A stretch of DNA of 64,000 bases from Escherichia phage vB_EcoM_Goslar: sequence record NC_048170.1; one strand, given 5' to 3'. Positions 1-50,585 of this stretch are shown piece after piece; position 1 is the first letter of the stretch; the number at the start of each line of letters is the position of its first letter. The notes beneath the pieces were generated by a model. The model was not told the DNA's origin and did no database searches. It worked only from the letters and a program-made list of their open reading frames with translations. The position numbers and the translations under genes were made by a program.

Positions 1-1081
1 TACGCTGATCGCCAGTAAACGTGATCTTCGCTTTAAAGATCAAACCGAATAACGACGTCATGGGATCATACGCAATACAACCGTGATCCAGCGTATCCGT
101 TGTCCGCCATTCTATCCCGACCAACCCGTTAGCGGTATGGCATCGCATATACGCATTAAGGACCATGTCTTCACTGACAACCGCGAAGTTCTCTGTTGAC
201 TGACCGTTGATAATCCAATACATCGGTTGCCAGAGGTTACGCGTACCTTTTGCGTAGCGGTAGGTTGGTGCGCCTTTAGGGTTGCCATTATTGAGATGGA
301 ATACGGCAGTACCTTGATAATGGTCGTTCGTATTAATCGGAACACTGTAAGCATCACCGAGATCCGTACGTTCCACCTTCGTGACTGTTGCGTTTTCAAA
401 CAACCCACGTAGCGCCGGTAAACCGATATCTTCAGGTGCGTTTTCTCGACGAATCGCATCCGCGATGCGGTGGGCTAAGGCGGGGTAAATGGCCTCACCC
501 TGCTGTAGGTTTGCAAGACCTACAAAGCGATCGGGGTCGATGCCAGCAATCAATAACTCGACATCACCCTTCGTTCTATCGTCGTTAAGATATTTCAGTC
601 CGGTAAGGTCAAGATGCTGAATAAGCGACAACAGGTTGTATTTACGGTTTTCAACAGTTAGTACAAGATCGCCTGCCCAAACCAAACTTCCCTCATCCGC
701 TGTTACTTTAACGGATTGTCGGCCTGTGGTAGACGTTGTTGTCGTTTTATTTAATTGTCCTTGTAGGAAGTCGGTTGCGAGGTCAAAGGCAATGCCGTAA
801 CGGTCAGCGACCGCTTGCATGATTTCACGTAACTGGGTATCTTCTTCAATGATAATCTTGATAGGTATTCCCAAGAACGCTTTAGCGAGGTCTCGTTTAA
901 CCAACGAGACGAATACGGATTTGTAGTATCGGCTTCCATCTTTCCCTTTAAAAAGAATGGAGGTTGTTTCGGGTGCCGATAGAACACGTGCAAATTCAAC
1001 ATCGTCGAATGTAAGAGAAAGTCCGTTTTTCTCGTTGACCAATCTTAGTATTTCATTTTGCGCGGTTTCATGTAACTTCAT
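1..1081 (-). CDS. tail fiber / receptor-binding-like protein, partial (3' end beyond window); N-terminal module shared with 6868..7413 and 49134..50585
   Basis: Hand translation of minus strand from ATG at 1081..1079 (MKLHETAQNEILRLVNEKNGLSLTFDDVEF...VKRDLAKAFLGIPIKIIIEED...) checked codon by codon down to about position 360 with no stop and assumed open to position 1; absent from ORF track because no stop lies in the window; N-terminus aligns with the two paralogs. Confidence 0.6.
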   Translation of the reverse strand, partial: MKLHETAQNEILRLVNEKNGLSLTFDDVEFARVLSAPETTSILFKGKDGSRYYKSVFVSLVKRDLAKAFLGIPIKIIIEEDTQLREIMQAVADRYGIAFDLATDFLQGQLNKTTTTSTTGRQSVKVTADEGSLVWAGDLVLTVENRKYNLLSLIQHLDLTGLKYLNDDRTKGDVELLIAGIDPDRFVGLANLQQGEAIYPALAHRIADAIRRENAPEDIGLPALRGLFENATVTKVERTDLGDAYSVPINTNDHYQGTAVFHLNNGNPKGAPTYRYAKGTRNLWQPMYWIINGQSTENFAVVSEDMVLNAYMRCHTANGLVGIEWRTTDTLDHGCIAYDPMTSLFGLIFKAKITFTGDQR

Positions 1082-1103
1082 TAAAAACCTCTGCCCTTTA
1101 GAA

Positions 1104-1745
1104 TTAGATGTACTGCTTACCGCCCACGAAGGAAGTTAACCAGTTACCCGAAACAAGCTGCGAAGCCCAGCCAGGCACTGCCCTACCGTTCTGACTCATG
1201 ATGTTACCACACCAACCAGGGAATCCGGGACGGATGTAATAGAAAGTTAAATTGTAGAGATGGCAATTCCATACCGCAACGTTATGTTTACCAGAAACCG
1301 CTTTAAAGATAAATGCGACAGGTAACGGAGACGATAACAATTCGGTCACAGGGACGGCTGACCAGTTCGCATTCGCGTTCCATGGCTGCCAGGTATGGCT
1401 ACGCGAGTCACCGTTGACGTTACCGTTGCTACCGCGTCCGCCCGCGTTCCACCATAGCGACGGACTCATGTTCTTAAGTGAGGTAAATTGCTGCGGTGGA
1501 ATATTCGGAATGATAACAGGGTTGGTACCTTGTCCGTGTTTCTTTTCTTTTGCGTTCACATAGCCGTTTATCGATTCCAGGTATTTGACACCAGGATAAT
1601 TGTTCTGGACTTGTGTCGCAATATCACGAACGTCGAACGTCCAGCAGATCATGGTGTTGTAGTAAGCGTCGGTGTTATCGTGCCATGAGTTACCATCTTG
1701 TAAACGTGCGCCACTATTCGGTGTTTTATCTGTACTTATAGCCAT
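1104..1745 (-). CDS. hypothetical protein (213 aa, Trp/Asn/Gly-rich), tail-module associated
   Basis: ORF track; minus strand between lipoprotein gene and partial fiber paralog; no recognisable motif. Confidence 0.5.
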   Translation of the reverse strand: MAISTDKTPNSGARLQDGNSWHDNTDAYYNTMICWTFDVRDIATQVQNNYPGVKYLESINGYVNAKEKKHGQGTNPVIIPNIPPQQFTSLKNMSPSLWWNAGGRGSNGNVNGDSRSHTWQPWNANANWSAVPVTELLSSPLPVAFIFKAVSGKHNVAVWNCHLYNLTFYYIRPGFPGWCGNIMSQNGRAVPGWASQLVSGNWLTSFVGGKQYI

Positions 1746-1884
1746 GGTCTTGTCCTATATGTTGGTGGTTGAGGTGGCGGATATCGGATGCGTGCTGGAC
1801 GTGAACCCTATAGTTCGCGCTATCGCCATTTTCTACCTCGTTTCTATTCTCAAAAAGGAAATTTCATACGATGACGCCATAGCA

Positions 1885-1914
1885 GCTCCTCCTTCCCTGA
1901 CGGGTTGGAGGAGC
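1885..1914 (-). terminator. intergenic hairpin (8-bp stem GCTCCTCC/GGAGGAGC) downstream of lipoprotein gene
   Basis: Inverted repeat read directly; U-rich stretch follows on minus strand only after a spacer. Confidence 0.35.
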
Positions 1915-1922
1915 ATACTTAA

Positions 1923-2426
1923 TTACTTACTGATAACCTCAACGGAATTGGGATCAGCGATCAACGCACGATCGGTAGAACAATTGAAGAAGACCATGCC
2001 AACACCATCGCCGTTCGAGTTCAGGGTTGAACTTGCGTAAGACAATGTTGGTTTATTCATGCGGTAGAAGCGTTCGCTGGTTGCGGTATTGAACCCCAGA
2101 TCAACGTAGTCTTTCACCGTGGTATACAACTGGGTGGACTCGAAAACGGTTACCGGAGAGTCGACGGTAAACTGACTACCTTCATCCACAACCAGAACTT
2201 TATCGTTCCAGATTTCAGTGGTTGAAAACTTCGGTTTCCAATGTTCGAATTCCTGGGTTGCGCCCCAGCAGGAATACACAGCGAGATTGCTGTTCTTCTC
2301 AACAGGTTTCAACCCCACCAGTTGTGTCAGGTCTTTATCCAGGTTCGGTAAGCCTTCCAGCGTAGCGCACCCACCCAGAGAAAGCACCATCAACATACCA
2401 AGAATAATCGCGCAAAGTTTCTTCAT
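1923..2426 (-). CDS. putative lipoprotein (signal peptide with lipobox-like LSLGGC)
   Basis: N-terminus MKKLCAIILGMLMVLSLGGCATLEG: basic residues, hydrophobic core, Cys after LGG; directly downstream of tail fiber assembly gene. Confidence 0.6.
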   Translation of the reverse strand: MKKLCAIILGMLMVLSLGGCATLEGLPNLDKDLTQLVGLKPVEKNSNLAVYSCWGATQEFEHWKPKFSTTEIWNDKVLVVDEGSQFTVDSPVTVFESTQLYTTVKDYVDLGFNTATSERFYRMNKPTLSYASSTLNSNGDGVGMVFFNCSTDRALIADPNSVEVISK

Positions 2427-2470
2427 CGTCGGATTTCCTTATGTGTTAACGGAAGTGATTTCCATAGTAA

Positions 2471-2887
2471 TTACTTAGCAGCAGGAAATTCCGGCCAATC
2501 GATATTTGGTGCAGCATCGGTATCGACAGCCGACACCGCGTCAACGTAATCCAAAACGGCGTTAAGTCGGGTCGTTTCTTCCGGAGTCAGTTTTCGCCCA
2601 GCCCGTAATTTTAACTGAATAAGATCGATGGAAGCCAGCGAAGAATCAATCAAAGATTGTTTTATCTGTTCTGCCTCGGCGACAAGTTCTTCGTGTTGCC
2701 GCTCGGGTTCCGGAGGCGCGATAAACTCGCCGTTTGAGTATAACCAACCTATTCCAGGTGACACAGCTGCCGTATCGCTAATGCTAACCAGCTGCTGATT
2801 GTCGAATATATCGAGCTCTGCTTCACCATCGTAAACAATCGTGTTTACTACCACTCCATTTTCAATAACAGCGTATAATGTACTCAT
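2471..2887 (-). CDS. tail fiber assembly protein (Tfa-type chaperone)
   Basis: C-terminus ...LNAVLDYVDAVSAVDTDAAPNIDWPEFP resembles the conserved C-terminal motif of lambda Tfa / Mu U-type tail fiber assembly proteins; start chosen at ATG 2887 (MSTLYAVIENG) forming TAATG overlap with fiber stop; ORF track gives 2471..2911. Confidence 0.7.
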   Translation of the reverse strand: MSTLYAVIENGVVVNTIVYDGEAELDIFDNQQLVSISDTAAVSPGIGWLYSNGEFIAPPEPERQHEELVAEAEQIKQSLIDSSLASIDLIQLKLRAGRKLTPEETTRLNAVLDYVDAVSAVDTDAAPNIDWPEFPAAK

Positions 2888-5800
2888 TACATAAACTCCT
2901 CGATGATGCAAATCCCATTAGCACCACGCCCACCAGGCTTAGCGGTTCCTGAGTAAGAGTTATCGTAAGCACCACCACCACCCGAACCAGGCGCGAGGCC
3001 GTTATGGGCGGTGCCAACACCAGCGCGACCGCCACCGCCCCAATATGACGCACCCCCACATCCACCGACGGCAATAGTACCGGCTTGTCCATCGCTACCG
3101 TCTCCGCCCGGAATGCGTATATCCCCGGTAGCAGGTGCGCCCCCATAGCCACCGCCAGTGTTTGTGACAGTTGTTTTTCCTGCGCCTTGCCCGCCGGGAG
3201 CAGTTAGCAGGGATGCAAATTTACTATCCCCACCCCCGTTCCCAGACGTCGCCCCAGAGCCACCGGAACCACCAGAACCAATTATAACAGAATAACTAGC
3301 AGCTGTTACCGTTATAACCGAAATTACTGTTCCGCCAGCTCCTCCCCCAGCACCAAAAAACGTTTCGCTGTTGGAATAAGCCTGACAGCCACCGCCGCCA
3401 CCGCCGCCACCGGTTATTGTTACTCTAATCCGTTTTGTTCCTTGTGTTGGAGTGTACGTCCCTGACGATGTGAAAACACGCATGTTCAGTAAACGTCCGA
3501 CATATCCGCTAGAATCGGCTAAACCAAGATCTTTAGCTGCTAACGTGATATTAGCTGTACCATCGAAAGGTTTACCGTTAATCGTGCGCGCAGTTTGCAA
3601 CTTCGTCGCCGTGGCTGCGTTCCCTGATGTATTCTGGTTCCCCGCGACGTTAACACCTGGTAGATTGATGTTCGCACTACCGTCGAAAGACACCCCACCA
3701 ATGGTGCGGGCTGTTTTCAGTTTTGTCGCCGTGGCGGCATTCCCCGTAGTGTCTTGGTTTCCTGCTGCGTTAACACCCGGCAGACTGATATTTGCCGTAC
3801 CATCGAACGCGACACCGCCAATCGTCCTTGCCGTTTGTAGTTTTGTCGCCGTGGCGGCATTACCGGTTGTGCTTTGGTTACCGGTGGTGTTTACCCCAGG
3901 TAGGCTGATATTTGCTGTTCCGTCAAATGAAACGCCGCCAATCGTCCTTGCCGTTTGCAACTTCGTTGCGGATGCCGCGTTCCCCGTGGTGTTTTGGTTA
4001 CCTGTTGCATTCACACCAGGGATACTATCCTTAGATGTATAGATCTGTGCCCATTCCGACCAATTCGAATCGGCTGCATCCCGACGAGAACGAAGATAGG
4101 CTGGCGCATGCGCCCCCGATGTACCAGACCATCCAATAAGGATCTCACCTTCACCTACTGCGGTTGCGCCTTTAAGATGAATAATATTGCCGTACGCTGT
4201 AGGGTATCCGTTATTGTACGCTTCATACATCTGGATACCCGTATTGCTACCCTGGGTCGCATTAGCTAAAGCGGTGACCCGTCCCTTGGAAGCGAGCACG
4301 TTAATGCTAAAGCTAATATCAGTTGTACCGTCAAAGGCGACCCCATTAATCCTCCGTGCCGTTTGGAGTTTCGTGGCAGTAGCCGCATTACCAGAAGTGC
4401 TCTGGTTACCCGCTTTGTTCACACCCGGTAAATCAATGTTGGCAGTCCCATCAAACGACACACCCCCTATGGTTCTCGCCGTCTGGAGTTTTGTTGCTGA
4501 ACCGGCGTTTCCGGAAGTGCTTTGATTGCCCGCGGCGTTGACACCAGGTAGGTTAATGCTAGCAGAACCATCAAAAGAAACTCCACCGATCGTAATGGTC
4601 GTTTGCAACTTCGTGGCTGTCGCAGCGTTACCCGTCGTATTCTGATTACCAGCTGCATTGACGCCAGGTAATGCGATATCAGTTGTACCGTCAAAAGCGA
4701 CACCACCGATTTTACGGGCGGTCTGTAGCTTGGTTGCGCTTCCTGCGTTTCCGCTGGTGTCTTGGTTTCCTGCAGCGTTAACACCCGGTAGACTGATGCT
4801 GACCGAACCATCGAAACTCACACCACCGATCGTAACAGCGGTTTTCAATTTCGTGGCAGTAGCTGCGTTACCGGTTGTATTTTGATTGCCTGTCGCATTA
4901 ACGCCCGGTAATGCAATATCCGCTGTTCCGTCAAAGGCAACGCCACCGATTCTACGTGCAGTTTGTAGCTTGGTCGCTGTAGCGGCATTACCGCTGGTAT
5001 TTTGCGTGCCTGCTTTATTTACACCGGGAAGATCGATGTTAGCAGAACCGTCGAAGCTAACGCCACCTATCGTTCTTGCCGTAGCAAGTTTAGCTGCTGT
5101 AGCAGCGGCGTTACCGACTTTTAACCATTCGCCCCATGGACCATCCTGGCCGTTCCATGATGCCGTTAAACTACGTACGTAAATATTGCCGGTACGTACA
5201 GTGTAACGTTGTGTTCCACCGAATTGCCCGGTTGGGAGCACTTCAATGTAACCTGCGGCGTTTGCTTCAGGGAAATTGTGGGCGACGTCCGCGTTCGTCG
5301 TTATTGGTTTAGACCAAATACCCACAGATGCTTCGACTGGACCGAAGGTATTCAGATTTGCGTCCGTCGCCATAGCACCATTAAATTTCAGGTACGTCTC
5401 TGGCGATAATCCGATCGTTTTAGCAAACGCAACTTTATCTACGATATCACTACCGTTATTCCCTGCCTGCAATGCTGTCTTAGCTGCCTTTATGGTTTCT
5501 GTCAATCCAAGATACAGTAAGACCGCATCAACGCTTCCTTTGCTTAGCAGATTCAGACCTGTTGACGTTACGTTAGTTAGCCCGATTTGGTTCCGTCCAG
5601 TAAAATAAGGGAGTTTATTCGCATCTGTTGTTAGGTTAGACCACGCGGTCAGCAACGCGTTCAACGGTTGTTTACCCGCCAACGCATTGGTTACTGTCGT
5701 TGCGAAATTAGGATCGTTCCCTAAAGCTTGAGCCAGCTCATTAAGCGTATTTAGCGCTTCTGGAGACGAGTCGATCAGCGATGCGATAGCACGCATCACA

Positions 5801-6861
5801 AATTCCGTGTTGGCAATCTGTCGACTGCTATCGTTCTCTGCAGCCGTAGGCGCTGCCGGGATACCGGTGAACACAGGGCTATTAAGATCTGCCTTGAGAG
5901 CGATGAGACGTTTAAGTGCGTCGACATCGACTTTCAGGTTTTCCCATCCGATGAGAGAACCACCACTGGCGTTATGATAACGGTTGTACCAGAAGTCGCC
6001 GTTAACGCCAAAAAAGAATATACCTTTCTCTTCGTATTGTGGGCCAGAACTATTTCGTGATGTTTCGATATATTTGATTTCAATAAGACCGCTAAACACC
6101 ACTCCTGGGATTATATTGTTGTTTCCAGCTGACTGTGATACCTGGTAAATCCCCGGGGTTGCGGCTTTAACCCATGTTAAGAATTCTGTTACTCCAGCGG
6201 CACCGCTAAAATTCTTAACGTCGGTAAGTATCGCCCCATAACCGAACATACCGGGTAGAGCCACTCGTTCGCTGGTACGGTCACGAATATCTGTCGCAAC
6301 AACGGGCAATTGTTTACGAACAGCATTAACCGCTTTAGGCGTGGCCGATTTTGTCTCGTCGTCGCTATCGGTTTCATTACTTAGAATAGTTAAACCGCGT
6401 GTAGCAGTAGTTGCATCAGGAAGAAATGCGTTATCCAACACCTTAAGCTGTATTGCACTCGTATTACTAACAACGACATGCACCTGACAGTTAAGAACGC
6501 TGGTTGCGCCTTCGGCAGGCGTAGGCTTATATCTTTCTGGCGCACTGCAGACGGCAATCAGAACACCTTGGTCATCATACAGACCGATCTCACGTACCCA
6601 GAACCCACCTTGACCAGCGGGAATAATACCCTCAACGATAATCCTGGTTGTGCTATCACCATCCGCATGGATATTAGAAACTTCCCCACGATAAACTTCG
6701 TGAACAAGCGCTGTTTGGCTGGCGGTCGGGGTTGGGATCGAGCCGTTACCATCACCAACGGCAAAGTGTGTGATTTTTAGTTTCTCACCGTCGGGAAGTA
6801 ACGCAGCGGTGATACGTTCTGCTCCTTTATCGGTAACTACCGTTATATATGCTGTACTCAT
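2887..6861 (-). CDS. tail fiber protein (1324 aa): P2 gpH-like N-terminal domain, about 11 tandem 40-aa fiber repeats, glycine-rich C-terminal region
   Basis: N-terminus MSTAYITVVTDKGAERITAALLPDGEKLKITHFAVGDGNGSIP...GGFWVREIGLYDDQGVLIAV resembles P2 gpH N-terminus; repeats of the form TARTIGGVSFDGSANIDLPGVNxAGNQNTxGNAATATKLQ; C-terminal GGGGGGGG and GxGG runs. Confidence 0.85.
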   Translation of the reverse strand: MSTAYITVVTDKGAERITAALLPDGEKLKITHFAVGDGNGSIPTPTASQTALVHEVYRGEVSNIHADGDSTTRIIVEGIIPAGQGGFWVREIGLYDDQGVLIAVCSAPERYKPTPAEGATSVLNCQVHVVVSNTSAIQLKVLDNAFLPDATTATRGLTILSNETDSDDETKSATPKAVNAVRKQLPVVATDIRDRTSERVALPGMFGYGAILTDVKNFSGAAGVTEFLTWVKAATPGIYQVSQSAGNNNIIPGVVFSGLIEIKYIETSRNSSGPQYEEKGIFFFGVNGDFWYNRYHNASGGSLIGWENLKVDVDALKRLIALKADLNSPVFTGIPAAPTAAENDSSRQIANTEFVMRAIASLIDSSPEALNTLNELAQALGNDPNFATTVTNALAGKQPLNALLTAWSNLTTDANKLPYFTGRNQIGLTNVTSTGLNLLSKGSVDAVLLYLGLTETIKAAKTALQAGNNGSDIVDKVAFAKTIGLSPETYLKFNGAMATDANLNTFGPVEASVGIWSKPITTNADVAHNFPEANAAGYIEVLPTGQFGGTQRYTVRTGNIYVRSLTASWNGQDGPWGEWLKVGNAAATAAKLATARTIGGVSFDGSANIDLPGVNKAGTQNTSGNAATATKLQTARRIGGVAFDGTADIALPGVNATGNQNTTGNAATATKLKTAVTIGGVSFDGSVSISLPGVNAAGNQDTSGNAGSATKLQTARKIGGVAFDGTTDIALPGVNAAGNQNTTGNAATATKLQTTITIGGVSFDGSASINLPGVNAAGNQSTSGNAGSATKLQTARTIGGVSFDGTANIDLPGVNKAGNQSTSGNAATATKLQTARRINGVAFDGTTDISFSINVLASKGRVTALANATQGSNTGIQMYEAYNNGYPTAYGNIIHLKGATAVGEGEILIGWSGTSGAHAPAYLRSRRDAADSNWSEWAQIYTSKDSIPGVNATGNQNTTGNAASATKLQTARTIGGVSFDGTANISLPGVNTTGNQSTTGNAATATKLQTARTIGGVAFDGTANISLPGVNAAGNQDTTGNAATATKLKTARTIGGVSFDGSANINLPGVNVAGNQNTSGNAATATKLQTARTINGKPFDGTANITLAAKDLGLADSSGYVGRLLNMRVFTSSGTYTPTQGTKRIRVTITGGGGGGGGCQAYSNSETFFGAGGGAGGTVISVITVTAASYSVIIGSGGSGGSGATSGNGGGDSKFASLLTAPGGQGAGKTTVTNTGGGYGGAPATGDIRIPGGDGSDGQAGTIAVGGCGGASYWGGGGRAGVGTAHNGLAPGSGGGGAYDNSYSGTAKPGGRGANGICIIEEFM
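3520..4030. repeat. tandem approx 120-nt coding repeats (array 1, about 4 units) inside tail fiber gene
   Basis: Recurring ttgtcgccgtggcggcattccc... units at about 3600, 3720, 3840, 3960. Confidence 0.7.
4290..5110. repeat. tandem approx 120-nt coding repeats (array 2, about 7 units) inside tail fiber gene
   Basis: Recurring units at about 4370, 4490, 4610, 4730, 4850, 4970, 5090; separated from array 1 by a non-repeat insert. Confidence 0.7.
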
Positions 6862-6867
6862 GGTGTT

Positions 6868-7413
6868 TTATCCTGGATAAATAGTGATGATATCACCAAT
6901 GACGGTTGTGGCACCGGCGTAAAGATGAGCCGGAGATACATCGTGTTGGTTTGTCACAGTAAGATCCAATCGACCACGCCAAACCACGGAGGTATTCGCG
7001 ATGGGGATAGAAATCTTTTTGGATATATCGTCACGAAAATCAATAACAGTGGCAAGGGTAACCGCATCAAAATCAACGTCGGGGTCAAAGACGAACCCGT
7101 ATTGATCTGAAATCGCCCGAATAATCGCATGTATAGTTGTTGTCTCGACGGACTCTAAAACGATTTTTACCGGTATTCCTAAAAATGCCTTCGCGATATC
7201 GCGTCGAGCGTAAACGATAAAACTTTCACCACACCACTTTGTTCCTTCATTTGCTGTGACGATCACTTTTGCCCTGTTAGCACCAGAACTCCCATCCAAG
7301 GTTAATGTAAGATCGGAGTTGCTGAACACGCTACCGTTACGTTGGTTTATCAACGTAATCAGTTCGTCTTTCCATGGCGGGTAAAGTGAACGCATAAGCG
7401 CACCCTCCTCCAA
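6868..7413 (-). CDS. tail fiber-associated protein (181 aa) consisting of the shared N-terminal module
   Basis: MRSLYPPWKDELITLINQRNG...RRDIAKAFLGIPVKIVLES...YGFVFDPDVDF aligns with N-termini of 1..1081 and 49134..50585 proteins; immediately upstream of fiber gene. Confidence 0.6.
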   Translation of the reverse strand: MEEGALMRSLYPPWKDELITLINQRNGSVFSNSDLTLTLDGSSGANRAKVIVTANEGTKWCGESFIVYARRDIAKAFLGIPVKIVLESVETTTIHAIIRAISDQYGFVFDPDVDFDAVTLATVIDFRDDISKKISIPIANTSVVWRGRLDLTVTNQHDVSPAHLYAGATTVIGDIITIYPG

Positions 7414-7600
7414 TAATCAAATTAAAATGTAAAACGCCTCGAAACCGGAGTGCGATTCGAGGTAAACGTAAACAGTCCAGACGACCGCATAAAATTCCGC
7501 GCATATTGCCCCTCTACCCCGACAAAGCGAGATAGAGGGGAGGATAATACGATTATGCTACTACACTCCAAAGTTCATGGGGCGGTAATCGCCCCATCGG

Positions 7601-10600
7601 TTAAATTGTTGGTTTTACATCGCGTAATAGGGCGATATAATAGCCTAATCCTCGGAGGATCTCCCCGCTCCAGAAACCAAAATACATTCCGTCTCTGCCG
7701 AGATTAGCGCTATCTGGTGCAGGACTCCATCCACCATTCATTACGTCATCAACGGTGTAGCGGTTGATGTAGTTTTCAACGATTTCGTTATAAGCATTAA
7801 CCGCAACAGAATAGCCTTTATCGTTGGGATGTCCGTACAACATTGCTAACGACGCACCCGCCAACCATAATCCTGCCATATGACCAGTAAAGTCGTTCGG
7901 GATAAAAGCAGGAGGTTTATCCATCGGAAAATCCGTAGGTGATTGATAAGCGTTTTCCTGTTGATACGTAAACAAGAAATCAATCCAATGACTGATGTAA
8001 GTGGTTAACTTCTCAGGGACAGCCAAACCACGATCGAGCAGTCCAGCATAAAGCCTCACCGCTGAAAAGAAAGCCCTCGGCTGATAACCAGACCATGCTG
8101 TCTGATCGCCGAAATGGTACATCGTAAAATCATTAACTTTTGATCCGCTTGGCGCATCCCAACGATCCCACACGTACGCACTTGCCCCTGGCCCTAAAAC
8201 CCCGAATTTCTGATAATACCACTGCTGTGAGTCATACCAGAAATTCACAACATTCTGAATCATGAGGTCACGTCGTTCAGCCGATACGTCCATATCCAGG
8301 AAGACCCATGGATGCTGGTAGCCGGGATAAGGCTGACCGCGCCAACTGTCGAACGTCGGTGCGTTAGGGATATAGTTGTTAGAGAACGGAATAATACCCG
8401 GAGTATAAGGCAATGGATCCAGACGTTGGTTGACAATCGTACAATCGCCAACACGCAATGTGCCCTCTGCCTCAAAGATTGCTTTTAACGTAAACAGCAT
8501 GGTATATCCGTCATCCGTGGTGTAAGTTGACGGTGGATTGTTGATGGCGTAAAGCTTAAATACCCCTTCAGCGATATCGCTGCCATCAGGCAAGAACAGA
8601 ATTTCAGTTGAACCGTCGCCCCACACAGGTGCGGAAGGTTTAGGGTCAGTATCAGCATGGCCAGGTTGATACCCTGAGAGCCTCCATCCGTTCGCCGAAA
8701 GCGTCAATGTATTTCTTGCTGTGGTGGCCGGTAGCATATACCACCATCGCCAACCATTTGCATCTTCTACACGAACGTTGTAGTCAATCGACGCGAAATA
8801 ACTGACCTGTCTTACGATCTGTTTTGCGGTTGGATTGAATTCAAATTGCCCGCCTGCCGCAGTAAGCTGCGCTTTTAAGAACAACCCATCCCAGGAATCT
8901 TCCGCTGCTTCGCTGAATTCTGTTGTGATTGCGACATCGTCTTTCCAGCCGACTTTATCAGCCGATATCAACACAGAACCTGTAACAGCATCACCGGTTG
9001 GCGTTGAAACTTCATCAACCGCATCAGCAGGAATCAACGAGCCTATTTTGAAATCCCATCCTTTCGGTTCAGCGCTGGAAGGTAATACCAGCTTGTACGT
9101 TTTGGCTTTCGCTTCGGTTTTGTCCAAAGAAAGCGAAAGTGAAATCTCAACCGGAATTGCAATACCTGCCGTATCCTTACCTCCGCAGGTTACACGAAGA
9201 ATTGAATCACGATTGACGCGGAACGGAATGGCCTGCTGTTCAAGATAAATTTGTGCTGAAGATGCTTGAATCACGATCCAGCCATCGGCATCACGTGTGA
9301 TTGTGAACGGTGCTTTCGATGGATAGGTATACGTGTAAGCGATACCATCGGTGTCGTAACGATCGGTTCCTTTTACCTGACGGAAGAACTTATCGTTGGC
9401 GTCGATACGGGTATATTCTTCAATCGTAAACAAAGATGCCTTGTACGCTTTCTGATAACGCTCCTGCTGCGTTAAACGGTATAAGGTGTAGGCTGCTTCA
9501 CAAAACCACTGTTCAGCGTCTGACGCGTTTCCCATGTAGTCTCTGGTGACCGGCACCTGGATCGGTCGGTTATGCTGACACTCGTTCGTTTTGATGAGGT
9601 ATCCGCCATATTCGACAGGAACGCGGGGTGCCCACGCAACCAAATAAGAACCGCTGACGGATTTATCTTTGAGTACGATGGTACCTACCTCATCGTCAGT
9701 ACACGCTTCAAGATCGTCCCCGTCAGCACTTACGTAACGTTTTGTGCGTAACGCAACTTTCTCGATAGGGAACACCGTACCCTTTGTATCCCAGTCAATC
9801 GTCCCATCATCATTGGTTTTGAACACATCGGCGTTCAAATTCTGCCAGCCGAGTTTACCCTCATAGACCTGAACAACAAGATCCATGTATTCCCCGAACG
9901 TTGGTGCCCCATGTGTTATTTTCCCGATACCGTTGGTGAATGTAACCGCTGTGTCATGGAAACCCCCGTGTGTTGGGTAATCGTCTTTTGCAAGAGGATA
10001 ATGAGCCAACACCGGTTGCTTACCATTAACGATCCAGTTAGCGATCCAGCGTGTCGGTGTATCCGGTGGTTCAAGGCCTGCGTAGAACGCTTTTATATAC
10101 GCATCGAACGATGACTCTGCTAATGCGAGATAATGCGCTTTAAGCTTGGTATCATCCGTTGTATGACTGAATATACCCGCACCCAGAATTAACAACGACT
10201 GTCCTTCTGTTGTTGCGTCACCATCCGGTTGTGCTTCTTGTCGTGTTGCTGCAATGAAATGGCGGTTGTTTACCATCACCCCGCTTTCATTTAACACGTA
10301 ATGATCGGTTTCTGGATCGGTAAACGTTCCTGTGTTTCGGGTTAAGAATCTTGCATGACCATAACCAACGAAATTAACCGGCGACGCTGTAATCATCCAT
10401 TTACCGATAAGTTGAGCAACATCATTATAACGCTCGGATGCGGTGATTTGTTTCACGTACCAGTCTTTATGGTTAAATGTCCAAAGCAGGAAGTAATAAG
10501 TTGTATCGATTTCCATCACCGGGAACGTTGGTGTTAACGGCTCCAATGTTAAGTAGTTGCTCCAGTCAATCTGTCCGCCAACAACCGATGGGGTAATCTC

Positions 10601-11197
10601 TAATAACTGACACCATTCATAACGGTCCGGTACACTACTGGACGTTGTTGGTAAAGGTAACTTGTATACACCAGTACGATTCAGATTGAGTGCTTTTCTA
10701 GCCGATCCTAAATCAACATAAATGCTCGATGATACGCTTGCACTATATGCCCCCAAAGCACCTAGCGTTGACCGATACATTGAGATGAACAACGTATCTT
10801 TCCAGTAAGGGTTATCCTTGGTTGGTTCTAAAGCGATTTGTGCGGAGATGCTGTTCCATGTCCCTAACTGGTATGTTGCATTTAAAGATTCTTCCGTGAA
10901 ATAACTTTCTGCAATTGCCAGATGGAACCGCTCGTTCAATAATGCGAGTGCGGCGCGTCCTGAGATATCTTCATTACCCGTTTCCTTCTTCATGATTGCG
11001 CCGAATGGAAACAGTGTCGCGAATGACCGTTTTGGTTTATTAACCGTAACCGTCCCCGTGTAGTTTCCAACACCGTCAAGTTTTTGACTATCGCCAACAG
11101 CAGTGACTGCGATACCATCAACCGGGATATCTGTTTTGTTTAGTGTATTGAGTTGGTCAACCAGATCCTGCTTATCGTCAGGTAAGAATGTCGCCAT
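7601..11197 (-). CDS. large structural protein (1198 aa), putative tail fiber / baseplate component
   Basis: Long uninterrupted minus-strand ORF in tail module; product assigned by context only. Confidence 0.5.
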   Translation of the reverse strand: MATFLPDDKQDLVDQLNTLNKTDIPVDGIAVTAVGDSQKLDGVGNYTGTVTVNKPKRSFATLFPFGAIMKKETGNEDISGRAALALLNERFHLAIAESYFTEESLNATYQLGTWNSISAQIALEPTKDNPYWKDTLFISMYRSTLGALGAYSASVSSSIYVDLGSARKALNLNRTGVYKLPLPTTSSSVPDRYEWCQLLEITPSVVGGQIDWSNYLTLEPLTPTFPVMEIDTTYYFLLWTFNHKDWYVKQITASERYNDVAQLIGKWMITASPVNFVGYGHARFLTRNTGTFTDPETDHYVLNESGVMVNNRHFIAATRQEAQPDGDATTEGQSLLILGAGIFSHTTDDTKLKAHYLALAESSFDAYIKAFYAGLEPPDTPTRWIANWIVNGKQPVLAHYPLAKDDYPTHGGFHDTAVTFTNGIGKITHGAPTFGEYMDLVVQVYEGKLGWQNLNADVFKTNDDGTIDWDTKGTVFPIEKVALRTKRYVSADGDDLEACTDDEVGTIVLKDKSVSGSYLVAWAPRVPVEYGGYLIKTNECQHNRPIQVPVTRDYMGNASDAEQWFCEAAYTLYRLTQQERYQKAYKASLFTIEEYTRIDANDKFFRQVKGTDRYDTDGIAYTYTYPSKAPFTITRDADGWIVIQASSAQIYLEQQAIPFRVNRDSILRVTCGGKDTAGIAIPVEISLSLSLDKTEAKAKTYKLVLPSSAEPKGWDFKIGSLIPADAVDEVSTPTGDAVTGSVLISADKVGWKDDVAITTEFSEAAEDSWDGLFLKAQLTAAGGQFEFNPTAKQIVRQVSYFASIDYNVRVEDANGWRWWYMLPATTARNTLTLSANGWRLSGYQPGHADTDPKPSAPVWGDGSTEILFLPDGSDIAEGVFKLYAINNPPSTYTTDDGYTMLFTLKAIFEAEGTLRVGDCTIVNQRLDPLPYTPGIIPFSNNYIPNAPTFDSWRGQPYPGYQHPWVFLDMDVSAERRDLMIQNVVNFWYDSQQWYYQKFGVLGPGASAYVWDRWDAPSGSKVNDFTMYHFGDQTAWSGYQPRAFFSAVRLYAGLLDRGLAVPEKLTTYISHWIDFLFTYQQENAYQSPTDFPMDKPPAFIPNDFTGHMAGLWLAGASLAMLYGHPNDKGYSVAVNAYNEIVENYINRYTVDDVMNGGWSPAPDSANLGRDGMYFGFWSGEILRGLGYYIALLRDVKPTI

Positions 11198-11210
11198 TAT
11201 TTACTCCACC

Positions 11211-12041
11211 TTAATCGTAACTAAAATAAAGTTTGCTGCTGACGCCGCTATCGGAACGAGGTTTTAATACCAGAACAGAGCTTCCGAACGACGGAAGTAT
11301 TGGAACATCTAAATCGTTCGCATCGGCAACTTTTCCATTATAAACGACATTGGCTGTTGTGATGAGTTCCCAAGCTAAGGTATAACTCATTGAAATCAGC
11401 GACGAGGCTAAACGGAATGCGTTGTATCCTTCTGGAGTATCTCCAACCGACATCGAACGTATCGCATCTTGCGGCGGTAAATTTAGCTTGATGCCGTAGG
11501 TGCTGAATGTGTGGAAATCCCCTTGTTTACTATCTTCTGGATAATACGAGGTTAGCGGTTCTCGCACCGTAATCAGTTCGCTAATATCGGTACTTACATC
11601 TTTTCGTGCGAGGAATTGAAACGTACCGTGCCATGATGCCGACGCGTCAGAACGAACGGGAACAGATATGGTTTTCTCGCCGCTTTCAAATTTAACCTGT
11701 GACGCTAACGCTGAAGAATCAAAGATCGTTAAATCGATCTTCAACCCATACTTCTTAAACAGCTGCGTTAAGCAGTCTGCTATCGTCGTCTTATCAGCAA
11801 CGACAATAAAAGGTTGGTGTTTGATAAAGAGCTTATTAATGTCTCGACGTTGAAGATAAACCTGTACGGGGTCTTCGACGTAGTAAACCGATTGTGGTGC
11901 AGGGGCTATAGAAAGGCGTAACCGACCCGATGCACCATACCAGGCTGGCGTTAACGTAATGTCTGACAGGGACAACGGATGCTGGAGATAGGCGTTTATT
12001 TTAGATAACACTTCCTCCTGCCATGATGCTTCAGGATACAT
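11211..12041 (-). CDS. hypothetical protein (276 aa), tail-module associated
   Basis: ORF track; first gene after strong terminator at 12098..12161. Confidence 0.5.
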   Translation of the reverse strand: MYPEASWQEEVLSKINAYLQHPLSLSDITLTPAWYGASGRLRLSIAPAPQSVYYVEDPVQVYLQRRDINKLFIKHQPFIVVADKTTIADCLTQLFKKYGLKIDLTIFDSSALASQVKFESGEKTISVPVRSDASASWHGTFQFLARKDVSTDISELITVREPLTSYYPEDSKQGDFHTFSTYGIKLNLPPQDAIRSMSVGDTPEGYNAFRLASSLISMSYTLAWELITTANVVYNGKVADANDLDVPILPSFGSSVLVLKPRSDSGVSSKLYFSYD

Positions 12042-49133: not shown

Positions 49134-50585
49134 ATGAAACTCAAACAAAGCTGGAAAGACGAACTCCTTGCGCTAGTAAACAGCAAAAACAGCTTACAAC
49201 TGACGTTAGACGATGTAAAATTTGAACTGACGGCACCGGTAAGCGAAGTGCCTGGAACGGTTGTTGTTACGATCAAACCGAACGACGATAGCCGTTACTT
49301 TAACGAGCAATCTCTGACCTACGTTCGTCGAGACATCGCTAAAAACTTCACCGGGATCCCGTTACGGGTTATCGTTAAAAATGATACCGCCGTAAGGGAT
49401 ATCATCAATACGATCGCTGAACGTTACGGATTAGTATTTGACACAACCGTCGACTTCCTCGAATCCGAGCTGAATAAACAAATTACGTTCGCAGACACCG
49501 GTATTAAAGACATTACGGTTCCGGTTGCAAACACGTCTTATGTTTGGGCGGGTAATCTTCAGTTCAATATCGCTAACGATACGTTGAGCTTGATTACGAT
49601 CATCAAGCAAACCAATCTTACGAATCTGGTTTATCTGGATGGTGTTGAAGCTGACACATCGGGTTCGTTACTATTAGCAACAACCTCGGTTATCGGCGAA
49701 AACGGAAATGCCGAAACAACTGAAGGTGTCCTTGACGCCGCGTACTTCCAGAATATCCTGAACGTCATGGTTCGTTATGGTGATATTAACAGCGAACAAA
49801 TGCAACAAGCAATGCAGACAATTAACCAAAGCGAAGACGCTCGTAGAGTAGAAGTGCGGTCATACGGTGACGCCGAGTTACTGGTAACCACCAAGAAAGA
49901 TTGGGTTATCGGTAGCCTTAAGGGTGCTATGGTTGTTGGTCACGCTTCACCTAAACCGATCCAATACGTTCTTAAAACAAAAGGCGGCACCATTATATTG
50001 TCATTAGATGGTTGGACAAATGTCAATATCGATTGGGGTGATGGGAATAAGACGACGCAGGACTCAGGCGATAATGAATATCAGCACAATTATGCTGACA
50101 CTACAGAACGTACAATCGTCGCTACGGGTACCCCTACCAACACTGAAGATACAGACGTACAGCAAAGCTTCACCGGTGGTAACATCACTGAAATCGTTGA
50201 CTGGAACAACGGATTACCTAAGGCCCCATCATTCCTTGCGGCGAACAGTTTAATTAAGGTTCCCGATTATATCCCGGCATATTGGACGTCGTTAGAAAGT
50301 ATGTTTACGCGATGCAGCGCTATTAACGACGTGAGCATCACCAAATGGAACACCCGCAACGTTACTTCAATGAAGGACCTCTTCTACGGTTGCGCTACGT
50401 TCAACCAACCGATCGGTTCGTGGGATGTTTCGTCTGTTAAGAATGCAGACAATATGTTGTCTGGGTGCTTCGCGTTCAATCAGGATCTGAGTGGTTGGAC
50501 ATTCCCGGCAGGCACTTCACACATCAACTACGACGGCATGACCGCCGCATGGCAGCCTGATCACAAACCACGCTTCACCGAGTAA
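49134..50585 (+). CDS. receptor-binding-like protein: shared N-terminal module plus C-terminal DUF285-like repeats
   Basis: N-terminus MKLKQSWKDELLALVNSKNS...RRDIAKNFTGIPLRVIVKND...YGLVFDTTVDF aligns with 6868..7413 and 1..1081; C-terminus WNTRNVTSMKDLFYGCATFNQPIGSWDVSSVKNADNMLSGCFAFNQDLSGW. Confidence 0.6.
   Translation: MKLKQSWKDELLALVNSKNSLQLTLDDVKFELTAPVSEVPGTVVVTIKPNDDSRYFNEQSLTYVRRDIAKNFTGIPLRVIVKNDTAVRDIINTIAERYGLVFDTTVDFLESELNKQITFADTGIKDITVPVANTSYVWAGNLQFNIANDTLSLITIIKQTNLTNLVYLDGVEADTSGSLLLATTSVIGENGNAETTEGVLDAAYFQNILNVMVRYGDINSEQMQQAMQTINQSEDARRVEVRSYGDAELLVTTKKDWVIGSLKGAMVVGHASPKPIQYVLKTKGGTIILSLDGWTNVNIDWGDGNKTTQDSGDNEYQHNYADTTERTIVATGTPTNTEDTDVQQSFTGGNITEIVDWNNGLPKAPSFLAANSLIKVPDYIPAYWTSLESMFTRCSAINDVSITKWNTRNVTSMKDLFYGCATFNQPIGSWDVSSVKNADNMLSGCFAFNQDLSGWTFPAGTSHINYDGMTAAWQPDHKPRFTE

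Follow-up and report, generated by a model that had tools for sequence, protein, structure and literature searches.

A DUF7941 module at the N-terminus of five tail-associated proteins of Escherichia phage vB_EcoM_Goslar

The window analyzed here, a 64,000-nucleotide stretch of NC_048170.1, is identified by its proteins as belonging to the published genome of vB_EcoM_Goslar, a jumbo phage of E. coli and a nucleus-forming member of the Chimalliviridae. Five window proteins match Goslar RefSeq entries exactly, namely gp88, gp91 (as a 175-aa product; YP_009820776.1), gp92 (YP_009820777.1), gp93 (YP_009820778.1), and gp161 (YP_009820846.1). The computed masses of gp87, gp88, gp89, gp90, gp91, gp92, gp93, and gp161 lie within 2 Da of those in Table S4 of a bioRxiv preprint from April 2026 that is not peer reviewed (10.64898/2026.04.21.720040), as in 133449 versus 133451 for gp90 (gp090 in the table) and 15028.6 versus 15028.8 for gp89 (gp089). 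Megablast with positions 1–12000 gave no match in a phage collection that does not include the Goslar accessions, and the identification accordingly comes from the exact protein matches and the masses. The window also encodes a piece of split RNA polymerase beta of the phiKZ type. The truncated ORF at 1..1081 is assigned to gp86 from its place in the gene order, between gp88 (an exact match) and the edge of the window, together with the preprint's list. The features discussed below are:

1..1081, minus strand: gp86, partial; DUF7941 and the beginning of a distal domain resembling the N4 sheath
2471..2887, minus strand: gp89, tail-fiber assembly chaperone, 138 aa, ATG at 2887 (Pfam Caudo_TAP, E 3e-20)
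2887..6861, minus strand: gp90, long tail fiber, 1324 aa, not a DUF7941 member
6868..7395, minus strand: gp91, 175 aa; DUF7941 N-terminal domain (NTD) and short tail
7601..11197, minus strand: gp92, 1198 aa; divergent DUF7941 NTD and large tail-protein domain
11211..12041, minus strand: gp93, 276 aa; DUF7941 only
49134..50585, plus strand: gp161, 483 aa; DUF7941 and DUF285 LRR

The original prediction held that three ORFs (1..1081, 6868..7413, and 49134..50585), all of which are present at these positions, share an N-terminal module of about 150 residues. Pairwise BLASTP confirmed this, with E values from 3e-22 to 4e-42: 1..1081(−) aligned with 6868..7413(−) at E 3e-22 (31% over 154 aa) and with 49134..50585(+) at E 4e-42 (34% over 247 aa), and the latter two aligned with each other at E 3e-29 (37% over 148 aa). 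The motifs RRDIAK.F.GIP and YG.VFD..VDF, named in the same prediction, were found in the alignment of the three N-termini. By profile comparison, the module is Pfam DUF7941 (PF25613), with gp86, gp161, gp91, and gp93 scoring 155.6, 87.9, 57.4, and 36.9 bits, all above the Pfam gathering cut-off of 27 bits. The three copies stand, but the window holds five, as gp93 (HMM E 1e-17) and gp92 had been overlooked. The Pfam scan of gp92 returned no DUF7941 match; residues ~3–145 nonetheless align as a divergent NTD (hhalign probability 96.2%, E 2.5e-9, 137 columns), and the N-terminus scores 22–26 bits by hmmsearch against a family HMM built here, so that remote homology points to gp92 as a divergent copy. 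A tblastn search with a single N-terminal module gave only four weak phage matches, and single-sequence searches are therefore too insensitive for this family. The preprint lists these five window proteins among ten Goslar DUF7941 paralogs (gp22, gp23, gp31, gp33, gp34, gp86, gp91, gp92, gp93, and gp161; 10.64898/2026.04.21.720040), half of which (5/10) are thus encoded in the window.

The plus-strand copy, gp161, comprises a DUF7941 NTD (Pfam E 1e-24), a disordered linker (residues 151–193), CTD-like helices and strands, a beta domain (276–334), and a BspA/DUF285 LRR at residues 345–483. The DUF285-like repeats predicted for this 483-aa protein were borne out by Pfam DUF285 at E 4.5e-22. Its AF2 model is confident for the NTD, falls below pLDDT 50 for residues 151–193, and then shows helices and strands. 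Among alleles from Goslarvirus relatives, the NTD is 89–98% identical, whereas residues 261–483 are only 42–69% identical. A scan for sigma-70 promoters and terminators around gp161 performed no better than on shuffled sequence. Goslar-type phages transcribe with their own polymerases.

The two overlooked copies are neighbors. gp93 (phrog_1037 over residues 12–275) consists of an NTD (1–150), a disordered linker (151–200), and a CTD, with no distal domain; its AF2 model has pLDDT values of 81–91, <50, and 50–70 for the respective parts, and the CTD parts of both the gp93 and gp161 models are of low confidence (pLDDT 50–70). In gp92, residues 279–1190 form a large tail-protein domain (phrog_2871, E 2e-296) that also occurs in rV5-like and Asteriusvirus phages, and the protein is 49% identical to 'tail protein I' of PCH45. 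The arrangement of a DUF7941-only gene directly upstream of a tail protein with a DUF7941 NTD is found both in Goslar (gp93–gp92) and in PCH45, and the same pair is probably present in SPLA10. A recurrent deletion in relatives removes gp93 together with residues 1–742 of gp92, or two thirds of the latter. Separately, gp92 carries a DUF285 extension in relatives. None of the nine ORFs upstream of gp93 received a baseplate or tail annotation in PHROG scans, and this cluster is an island beside an endolysin-like gene, outside the main baseplate module.

Only the first 360 aa of gp86 lie in the window, the full-length Goslar protein being 98.6 kDa. Residues 2–277 constitute a complete DUF7941 (NTD, linker, and CTD; Pfam E 2.4e-45), and the distal part, of which residues 279–360 are inside the window, gives a weak Pfam match to NCTSP_N (E 0.005). 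The gp86-type relatives P0001 and P0002 reach 42.5 and 65.4 bits against the NCTSP_N (PF23844) and TIM-barrel_NCTSP (PF23845) models, the 42.5 bits being the NCTSP_N score of P0001, a full gp86 homologue (95% identical). The gp86-type distal part also matches the solved N4 Gp64 chain (E 3e-10). The non-contractile sheath of N4 is a receptor-binding organ, in which gp65, the partner of gp64, is the receptor-binding protein (PMC13434306). The resemblance has its limits, as the Goslar domain is fused behind DUF7941 whereas the N4 version wraps a short tail. In gp86 relatives, the N-terminal 220 aa are unchanged and separate internal deletions follow downstream. We considered a domain swap for P0002, which has a 98% identical N-terminus and a different C-terminus, but DNA alignment with P0001 rejected it: the two derive from one longer gene, each with its own internal deletions.

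The remaining copy, gp91, lies next to the fiber locus. The ORF at 6868..7413 has its true start at the ATG at 7395, preceded by a GGAGGAGGG ribosome-binding site, giving a protein of 175 rather than 181 aa. Its DUF7941 match (Pfam E 2e-15) covers profile positions 7–154 only; a short tail follows the NTD, and both CTD and distal domain are absent. This layout, with a stop after a short tail, resembles that of Goslar gp23, and gp91 was detected in virions from two peptides at ~1.2 copies (Table S4, 10.64898/2026.04.21.720040). At about one copy per virion and two peptides, a structural role for gp91 is doubtful. The fiber, gp90, is composed of an N-terminal collar-fiber domain, repeats of ~43 aa, and a glycine-rich C-terminal domain (Pfam PF12571 at E 2.6e-41, Gly_rich_2, and Phage_fiber_2); its N-terminal attachment domain, PF12571, is of its own type and unrelated to DUF7941. 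The original prediction had stressed that one module copy stands directly in front of the long fiber. This position has no evident meaning, given ~1 copy of gp91 versus ~43 of the fiber, and in a close relative the fiber gene is cleanly deleted while gp91 is kept.

A structural anchor for the family comes from phiKZ, whose gp127 and gp126 are DUF7941 proteins by Pfam. The gp127 NTD sits at the outer tip of the baseplate spoke and is the only solved DUF7941 homologue (PMC13250141; PDB 9xqd); a band of gp139 dimers terminates at gp127, of which each star lobe has one (PMC13250141). Foldseek against the PDB returned a sole match at E < 0.001 for each AF2 model, in both cases the gp127 NTD (9xqd chain 0, entry 9xqd_0): E 2e-6 and TM 0.56 for gp93, and E 8e-6, TM 0.65, and rmsd 3.8 Å for gp161. 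The fold of the module is thus preserved as far as phiKZ. A window-derived profile scored gp127 and gp126 at 20–22 bits, with controls below 1 bit, and phmmer with phiKZ gp126–gp146 against all window ORFs yielded one weak gp126 match only. A six-sequence profile found no match among PDB sequences, although gp127 is in the PDB, so the link to gp127 needed structure comparison. The parallels extend to the NTD-linker-CTD layout, shared by gp127 and gp93, and to the adjacency of the gp127 and gp126 genes, as for gp93 and gp92. The differences are that sequence identity to Goslar members is only ~20%, and that phiKZ has three DUF7941 members with no large distal domain, versus ten in Goslar, three of which carry distal domains. 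No homologue of the spoke protein (gp139/gp32) was located in the window, Goslar gp32 being encoded outside it. The PHROG category "head and packaging" had hinted at a capsid-targeting propeptide, a role we rejected because the solved homologue sits in the baseplate.

These comparisons bear on whether the similarity is a mere trace of old gene duplications, with an N-terminal part that has no common function. Pairwise identity among the module paralogs is only 25–37%, as such a trace might show. Positions N16, D67, K70, F72, Y98, S135, W138, and G140 are nevertheless invariant across paralogs and phages, the fold is kept out to phiKZ, and the gp161 alleles show an NTD more constrained than the remainder of the protein, making this explanation extremely improbable.

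All five proteins were detected by mass spectrometry of purified virions (Table S4, 10.64898/2026.04.21.720040), in agreement with the presence in virions that the original prediction implied. Copies per virion were ~111 for gp161, ~4.9 for gp92, ~4.8 for gp93, and ~4.5 for gp86, besides the value for gp91 above, and across the paralogs they range from ~1 to ~2100, for a total of >2500 versus six expected anchoring sites; gp22 and gp23, encoded outside the window, are very abundant (10.64898/2026.04.21.720040). The same work describes the family as virion proteins linked to the baseplate and thought to form filaments for host recognition. Purified gp22 formed filaments in vitro, a behavior demonstrated for gp22 only and not for any of the five paralogs in the window. 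AF3 predicts head-to-tail docking, and unassigned phiKZ density can accommodate a gp126–gp127 dimer; the Goslar baseplate map itself showed no resolved DUF7941 density. The authors propose that polymers, assembled head to tail and attached to the peripheral baseplate, bear carbohydrate-binding, hydrolase, or LRR domains, such extra domains being assigned to gp86, gp92, and gp161 (10.64898/2026.04.21.720040).

The reading offered originally was that the paralogs are alternative receptor-binding proteins, all plugged through the module into the same baseplate adaptor site, forming a branched or interchangeable set as in CBA120, phi92, or K1-5-type phages. Branched multi-receptor-binding-protein systems with conserved N-terminal anchors include TSP1–4 of CBA120 (with T4 gp10-like modules), the multi-fiber phi92 and rV5, the K1-5/SP6 adaptor, and Klebsiella PhiK64-1. 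The Goslar proteins share with them a conserved N-terminal attachment module, fast-evolving and differing distal parts, and, putatively, several host-recognition proteins per particle. A conserved module with a variable distal part is evident between paralogs and, within gp161 alleles and gp86 relatives, between versions of one protein; the gp127 NTD contacts the spoke end, and gp86, gp92, and gp93 are each present at ~5 copies, near one per baseplate sextant. The general pattern, including tail association, therefore survives from the original reading; the single shared site fares less well. Distal domains of host-recognition type occur on three of the five window copies (the BspA-type LRR of gp161, the N4 gp64/gp65-like part of gp86, and the tail-protein domain of gp92), and a receptor-binding or depolymerase domain is missing from gp91 and gp93, which consist of DUF7941 parts only. 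gp161 alone reaches ~111 copies, and individual paralogs number ~1 to ~2100 and together >2500 versus six sites, which argues against all of them competing for a single site. gp22 polymerizes unaided, and phiKZ gp126–gp127 is modeled as an NTD gripped by linker and CTD, that is, paralog to paralog rather than all to an adaptor. The anchors of the branched systems also have an unrelated fold and hold trimeric tailspikes on a defined adaptor in fixed stoichiometry, whereas DUF7941 is a globular domain with a disordered linker, is proposed to self-polymerize head to tail, and is present in thousands of copies per virion. The copy numbers fit polymerization better than a single adaptor site, and we consider the one-adaptor arrangement unlikely.

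The evidence supports a role of the module in virion attachment or assembly of tail-associated proteins. In a further alternative, it is a general tag for virion incorporation or assembly that has no host-recognition role, e.g., as scaffold for a very large peripheral baseplate, with distal domains acting instead in particle stability or in degrading cell wall or capsule at lysis. The PHROG labels read only 'virion structural protein', and lineages without gp93 and two thirds of gp92, and without the gp90 fiber, apparently exist as ~235-kb genomes; from their apparent survival, at least some paralogs are dispensable. Set against this, the distal domains belong to types known from surface binding (BspA LRR and N4 sheath subunits), and rapid change confined to the distal part usually signals selection imposed by host surfaces. 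We judge a pure assembly role very unlikely.

The probable explanation is that DUF7941 proteins form baseplate-attached head-to-tail chains, with some paralogs as chain or adaptor subunits and others bearing putative host-binding or glycan-processing domains. The NTD would be the docking unit, one copy docking at the outer end of a baseplate spoke as the phiKZ gp127 NTD does on the gp139 band; for Goslar itself, this attachment is suggested by analogy with phiKZ. Chains suspended from the peripheral baseplate would then be built from or joined by the DUF7941-only paralogs gp93, gp91, gp22, and gp23, while gp161, gp86, and gp92 would display host-binding or glycan-processing functions through the LRR, the N4 sheath-like part, and the large tail-protein domain, respectively. 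We infer the polarity of the polymer, the binding partners of the paralogs, and any role in host range. More tentatively, the assembly may have fixed wiring rather than forming a random "cloud": gp93 could act as an adaptor in the manner of gp127, gripping the divergent gp92 NTD in a 1:1 pair at ~6 per virion, conserved in PCH45 and SPLA10, with distal-domain paralogs capping or decorating gp22 and gp23 chains. Natural Goslarviruses might in that case adjust their host range through loss or exchange of cassettes, of which the gp93/gp92 1–742 deletion, the loss of the gp90 fiber, and the DUF285 extension on gp92 would be examples. This possibility is worth stating but is doubtful.

The DUF7941 set in the preprint and the window proteins are the very same, with no difference in kind. 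The finding holds up but was known before, and nothing in kind is added to the April 2026 work. The small additions made here are the domain-wise divergence of gp161 alleles and the deletion variants in relatives, along with the resemblance of the gp86 distal part to N4 gp64/gp65 and the conservation of the gp93–gp92 pair in PCH45. Their value lies in independent confirmation of the family from sequence alone and in testable details, such as which paralogs resemble chain units and which carry binding domains, and the adaptor-like gp93–gp92 pair. Natural deletion variants could serve as ready-made mutants for host range. Host finding by nucleus-forming jumbo phages is poorly understood, and DUF7941 proteins are at present the best candidate for the recognition apparatus.

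The three open reading frames (ORFs) named in the original prediction are present, and homology over the N-terminal ~150 residues is far above chance in all three BLASTP pairs (gp86–gp91, E 3e-22, 31% identity; gp86–gp161, E 4e-42, 34% over 247 residues; gp91–gp161, E 3e-29, 37%). Each exceeds the curated Pfam threshold for DUF7941 (PF25613), the motifs quoted in the prediction were recovered in the multiple alignment, and the DUF285 (BspA-type leucine-rich) repeats it assigned to gp161 were confirmed. The count of three copies did not hold. Searching all six-frame ORFs of the window with an HMM of the three N-termini identified gp93 as a fourth copy (HMM E 1e-17; Pfam 36.9 bits), and the first ~145 residues of gp92 matched a broader family profile at 22-26 bits; the latter search returned no further DUF7941 copy in the window. 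When the gp92 N-terminus, aligned with that of its homologue from phage PCH45, was compared with the family alignment, hhalign gave a probability of 96.2% (E 2.5e-9) over 137 collinear columns from residue 3. The true start of gp91, first given as a 181-aa ORF, is the ATG at 7395, downstream of a GGAGGAGGG ribosome-binding site.

DUF7941 proteins and neighboring genes: coordinates, strand, description, mass computed from the window, and copies per virion (median estimates, Table S4 of 10.64898/2026.04.21.720040)
1..1081, minus: gp86, partial; about 4.5 copies
gp87: 23641.2 Da
1923..2426, minus: gp88, 167 aa; 18410.8 Da
2471..2887, minus: gp89, fiber assembly chaperone; 15028.6 Da
2887..6861, minus: gp90, long tail fiber; 133449.1 Da; about 43 copies
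6868..7395, minus: gp91; 19185.6 Da; about 1.2 copies, two peptides
7601..11197, minus: gp92, 1198 aa; 133607.0 Da; about 4.9 copies
11211..12041, minus: gp93, 276 aa; 30735.4 Da; about 4.8 copies
49134..50585, plus: gp161, 483 aa; 53387.1 Da; about 111 copies

By exact-sequence look-up, gp161, gp93, gp92, gp91, and gp88 from the window are identical to RefSeq proteins of Escherichia phage vB_EcoM_Goslar, and the eight window-computed masses lie within 2 Da of those listed in Table S4 of the virion preprint on this phage. The masses and the exact matches of its neighbors identify the partial ORF at the window start as gp86. As expected in a chimallivirus, a phiKZ-type split RNA polymerase beta piece is also encoded in the window. 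That preprint (10.64898/2026.04.21.720040, April 2026) defined DUF7941 as a chimallivirus-specific family with ten Goslar members (gp22, 23, 31, 33, 34, 86, 91, 92, 93, and 161), all 10/10 detected in purified virions, and described gp86, gp92, and gp161 as an N-terminal DUF7941 followed by carbohydrate-binding, glycoside-hydrolase, or LRR domains. The module family has thus already been described for Goslar itself; the feature is real, correctly observed, and already known.

The relationship extends to phiKZ, where Pfam assigns gp127 (97.5 bits) and gp126 (36.6 bits) to DUF7941, with gp143 below threshold. Using a profile built solely from window and PCH45 sequences, all three scored 17-22 bits, while three control phiKZ proteins scored <1 bit. 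In the AlphaFold2 model of gp93, the N-terminal domain (residues 1-150) is confident (pLDDT 81-91), residues 151-200 are disordered, and the C-terminal domain is weaker. The gp161 model has the same N-terminal domain, a disordered stretch at 151-193, and then CTD-like helices and strands, a beta domain, and an LRR solenoid. For each model, Foldseek returned one PDB match with E <0.001, namely 9xqd chain 0 (gp93, E 2e-6, TM 0.56; gp161, E 8e-6, TM 0.65, rmsd 3.8 Å), which is the phiKZ gp127 N-terminal domain in the outer peripheral baseplate. In phiKZ, one gp127 per star lobe terminates a band of gp139 dimers (PMC13250141). The phiKZ gp127-gp126 genes are adjacent, like gp93-gp92 of Goslar, and PCH45 mirrors this pair with a 283-aa DUF7941-only gene directly upstream of a "tail protein I" that itself has a DUF7941-like N-terminus.

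The distal parts differ. Close relatives of gp86 carry the Pfam domains NCTSP_N and TIM-barrel_NCTSP, with the TIM-barrel part matching the solved Gp64 chain of phage N4 (E 3e-10); in N4, a gp64-gp65 heterodimer forms the non-contractile sheath and gp65 is the receptor-binding protein (PMC13434306). Residues 279-1190 of gp92 belong to a tail-protein family common to PCH45, SPLA10, rV5-like phages, and Asteriusviruses. Among Goslarvirus alleles of gp161, the N-terminal domain is 89-98% identical and residues 261-483 fall to 42-69%, a conserved-anchor/variable-tip pattern typical of host-recognition proteins.

Goslarviruses are common among E. coli, Salmonella, and Shigella assemblies (PMC12768965), and we found many 235-243 kb contigs. 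A 116-kb Logan contig (L005), with flanking genes 92-100% identical to Goslar, differs in four ways. First, it lacks window 9006..11811, comprising most of gp93 and gp92 residues 1-742; the junction of this 2.8-kb deletion has a 10-nt overlap (L005 5709..5718). Since five contigs <=235 kb encode a 456-aa remnant of gp92 with the same first residue (protein P0121), the deletion looks like a circulating variant, not an assembly error. Second, the entire 3.96-kb gp90 gene is missing, leaving gp91 directly before gp89. The gp90 and gp89 starts share 14 nt (ATGAGTACA...; window 6848..6861 and 2887..2900, minus strand), both proteins begin MST, and the loss falls exactly between the two copies, its junction lying within the common 14 nt (L005 8153..8166). 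Third, gp92 ends differently, a longer C-terminal extension with DUF285 repeats standing in place of its final residues (L005 6877..7452 versus window 7565..7837; Pfam 149.9 bits, two stretches). The repeat type of the extension is that of gp161, suggesting mobility of the LRR cassette among tail proteins. Fourth, gp86 carries an internal deletion (L005 10660..11008), and a different one occurs in a second relative (L006, Logan SRR21909578). Of these gp86-type proteins, P0001 retains DUF7941 and NCTSP_N before the reading frame is lost, and in P0002 residue 220 is followed immediately by the latter half of the TIM barrel; the mass of gp86 in Goslar is 98.6 kDa. This gene seems to decay or rearrange readily.

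Several neighboring features were also recorded. The product of gp88 has an N-terminal lipoprotein-type signal peptide and lipobox (MKKLCAIILGMLMVLSLGGC; UniRef "Lipoprotein"), lies inside the DUF7941/fiber gene island, and, at about 740 copies per virion, is among the most abundant virion proteins (Table S4, 10.64898/2026.04.21.720040), which is odd for a lipoprotein-like protein in a tailed-phage particle. The lambda gpK-type chaperone gp89 (Caudo_TAP) is present at ~52 copies, similar to the fiber (same table), and may stay bound to the fiber tip in the mature particle. Two G+C-rich hairpins, ccgatggggcg...cgccccatg and cccctctatctcgctttgtcggggtagagggg, lie in the 205-nt gp92-gp91 gap (7396..7600, minus) and suggest that transcription stops or restarts between gp93-gp92 and the gp91-gp90-gp89 genes. 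Several long plus-strand ORFs of 75-196 aa within the fiber-gene repeats (3452..5182) were rejected as mirror-frame artifacts of the ~43-aa repeats.

The original prediction read the module as anchoring interchangeable receptor-binding proteins to one baseplate adaptor. This was partly right, in that the module serves virion attachment or assembly and some of the proteins bearing it resemble receptor-binding proteins. Alternative occupancy of one adaptor fares poorly, because two copies (gp91 and gp93) lack any distal part and abundance per virion ranges over three orders of magnitude, up to about 577 for gp22 and 2144 for gp23 (Table S4, 10.64898/2026.04.21.720040), against six expected anchoring sites. 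The position of gp91 before the long fiber likewise appears incidental, at ~1 copy versus ~43 for a fiber that has its own PF12571 attachment domain, with a relative keeping gp91 without the fiber. On the same grounds of missing distal parts and copy-number spread, the published head-to-tail polymer model fits much better. In that work, purified gp22 forms filaments, a phiKZ gp126-gp127 dimer was fitted to unassigned baseplate density, and the peripheral baseplate is proposed to bear a hanging cloud of DUF7941 filaments (10.64898/2026.04.21.720040). One refinement of the polymer model, in two parts, is reasonable but unproven. Since gp93 and gp92 are equally abundant, each near six copies per virion, and their gene pair is conserved, gp93 could be a gp127-like adaptor for gp92. 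In the second part, gp22 and gp23 would build chains that the domain-bearing paralogs decorate.
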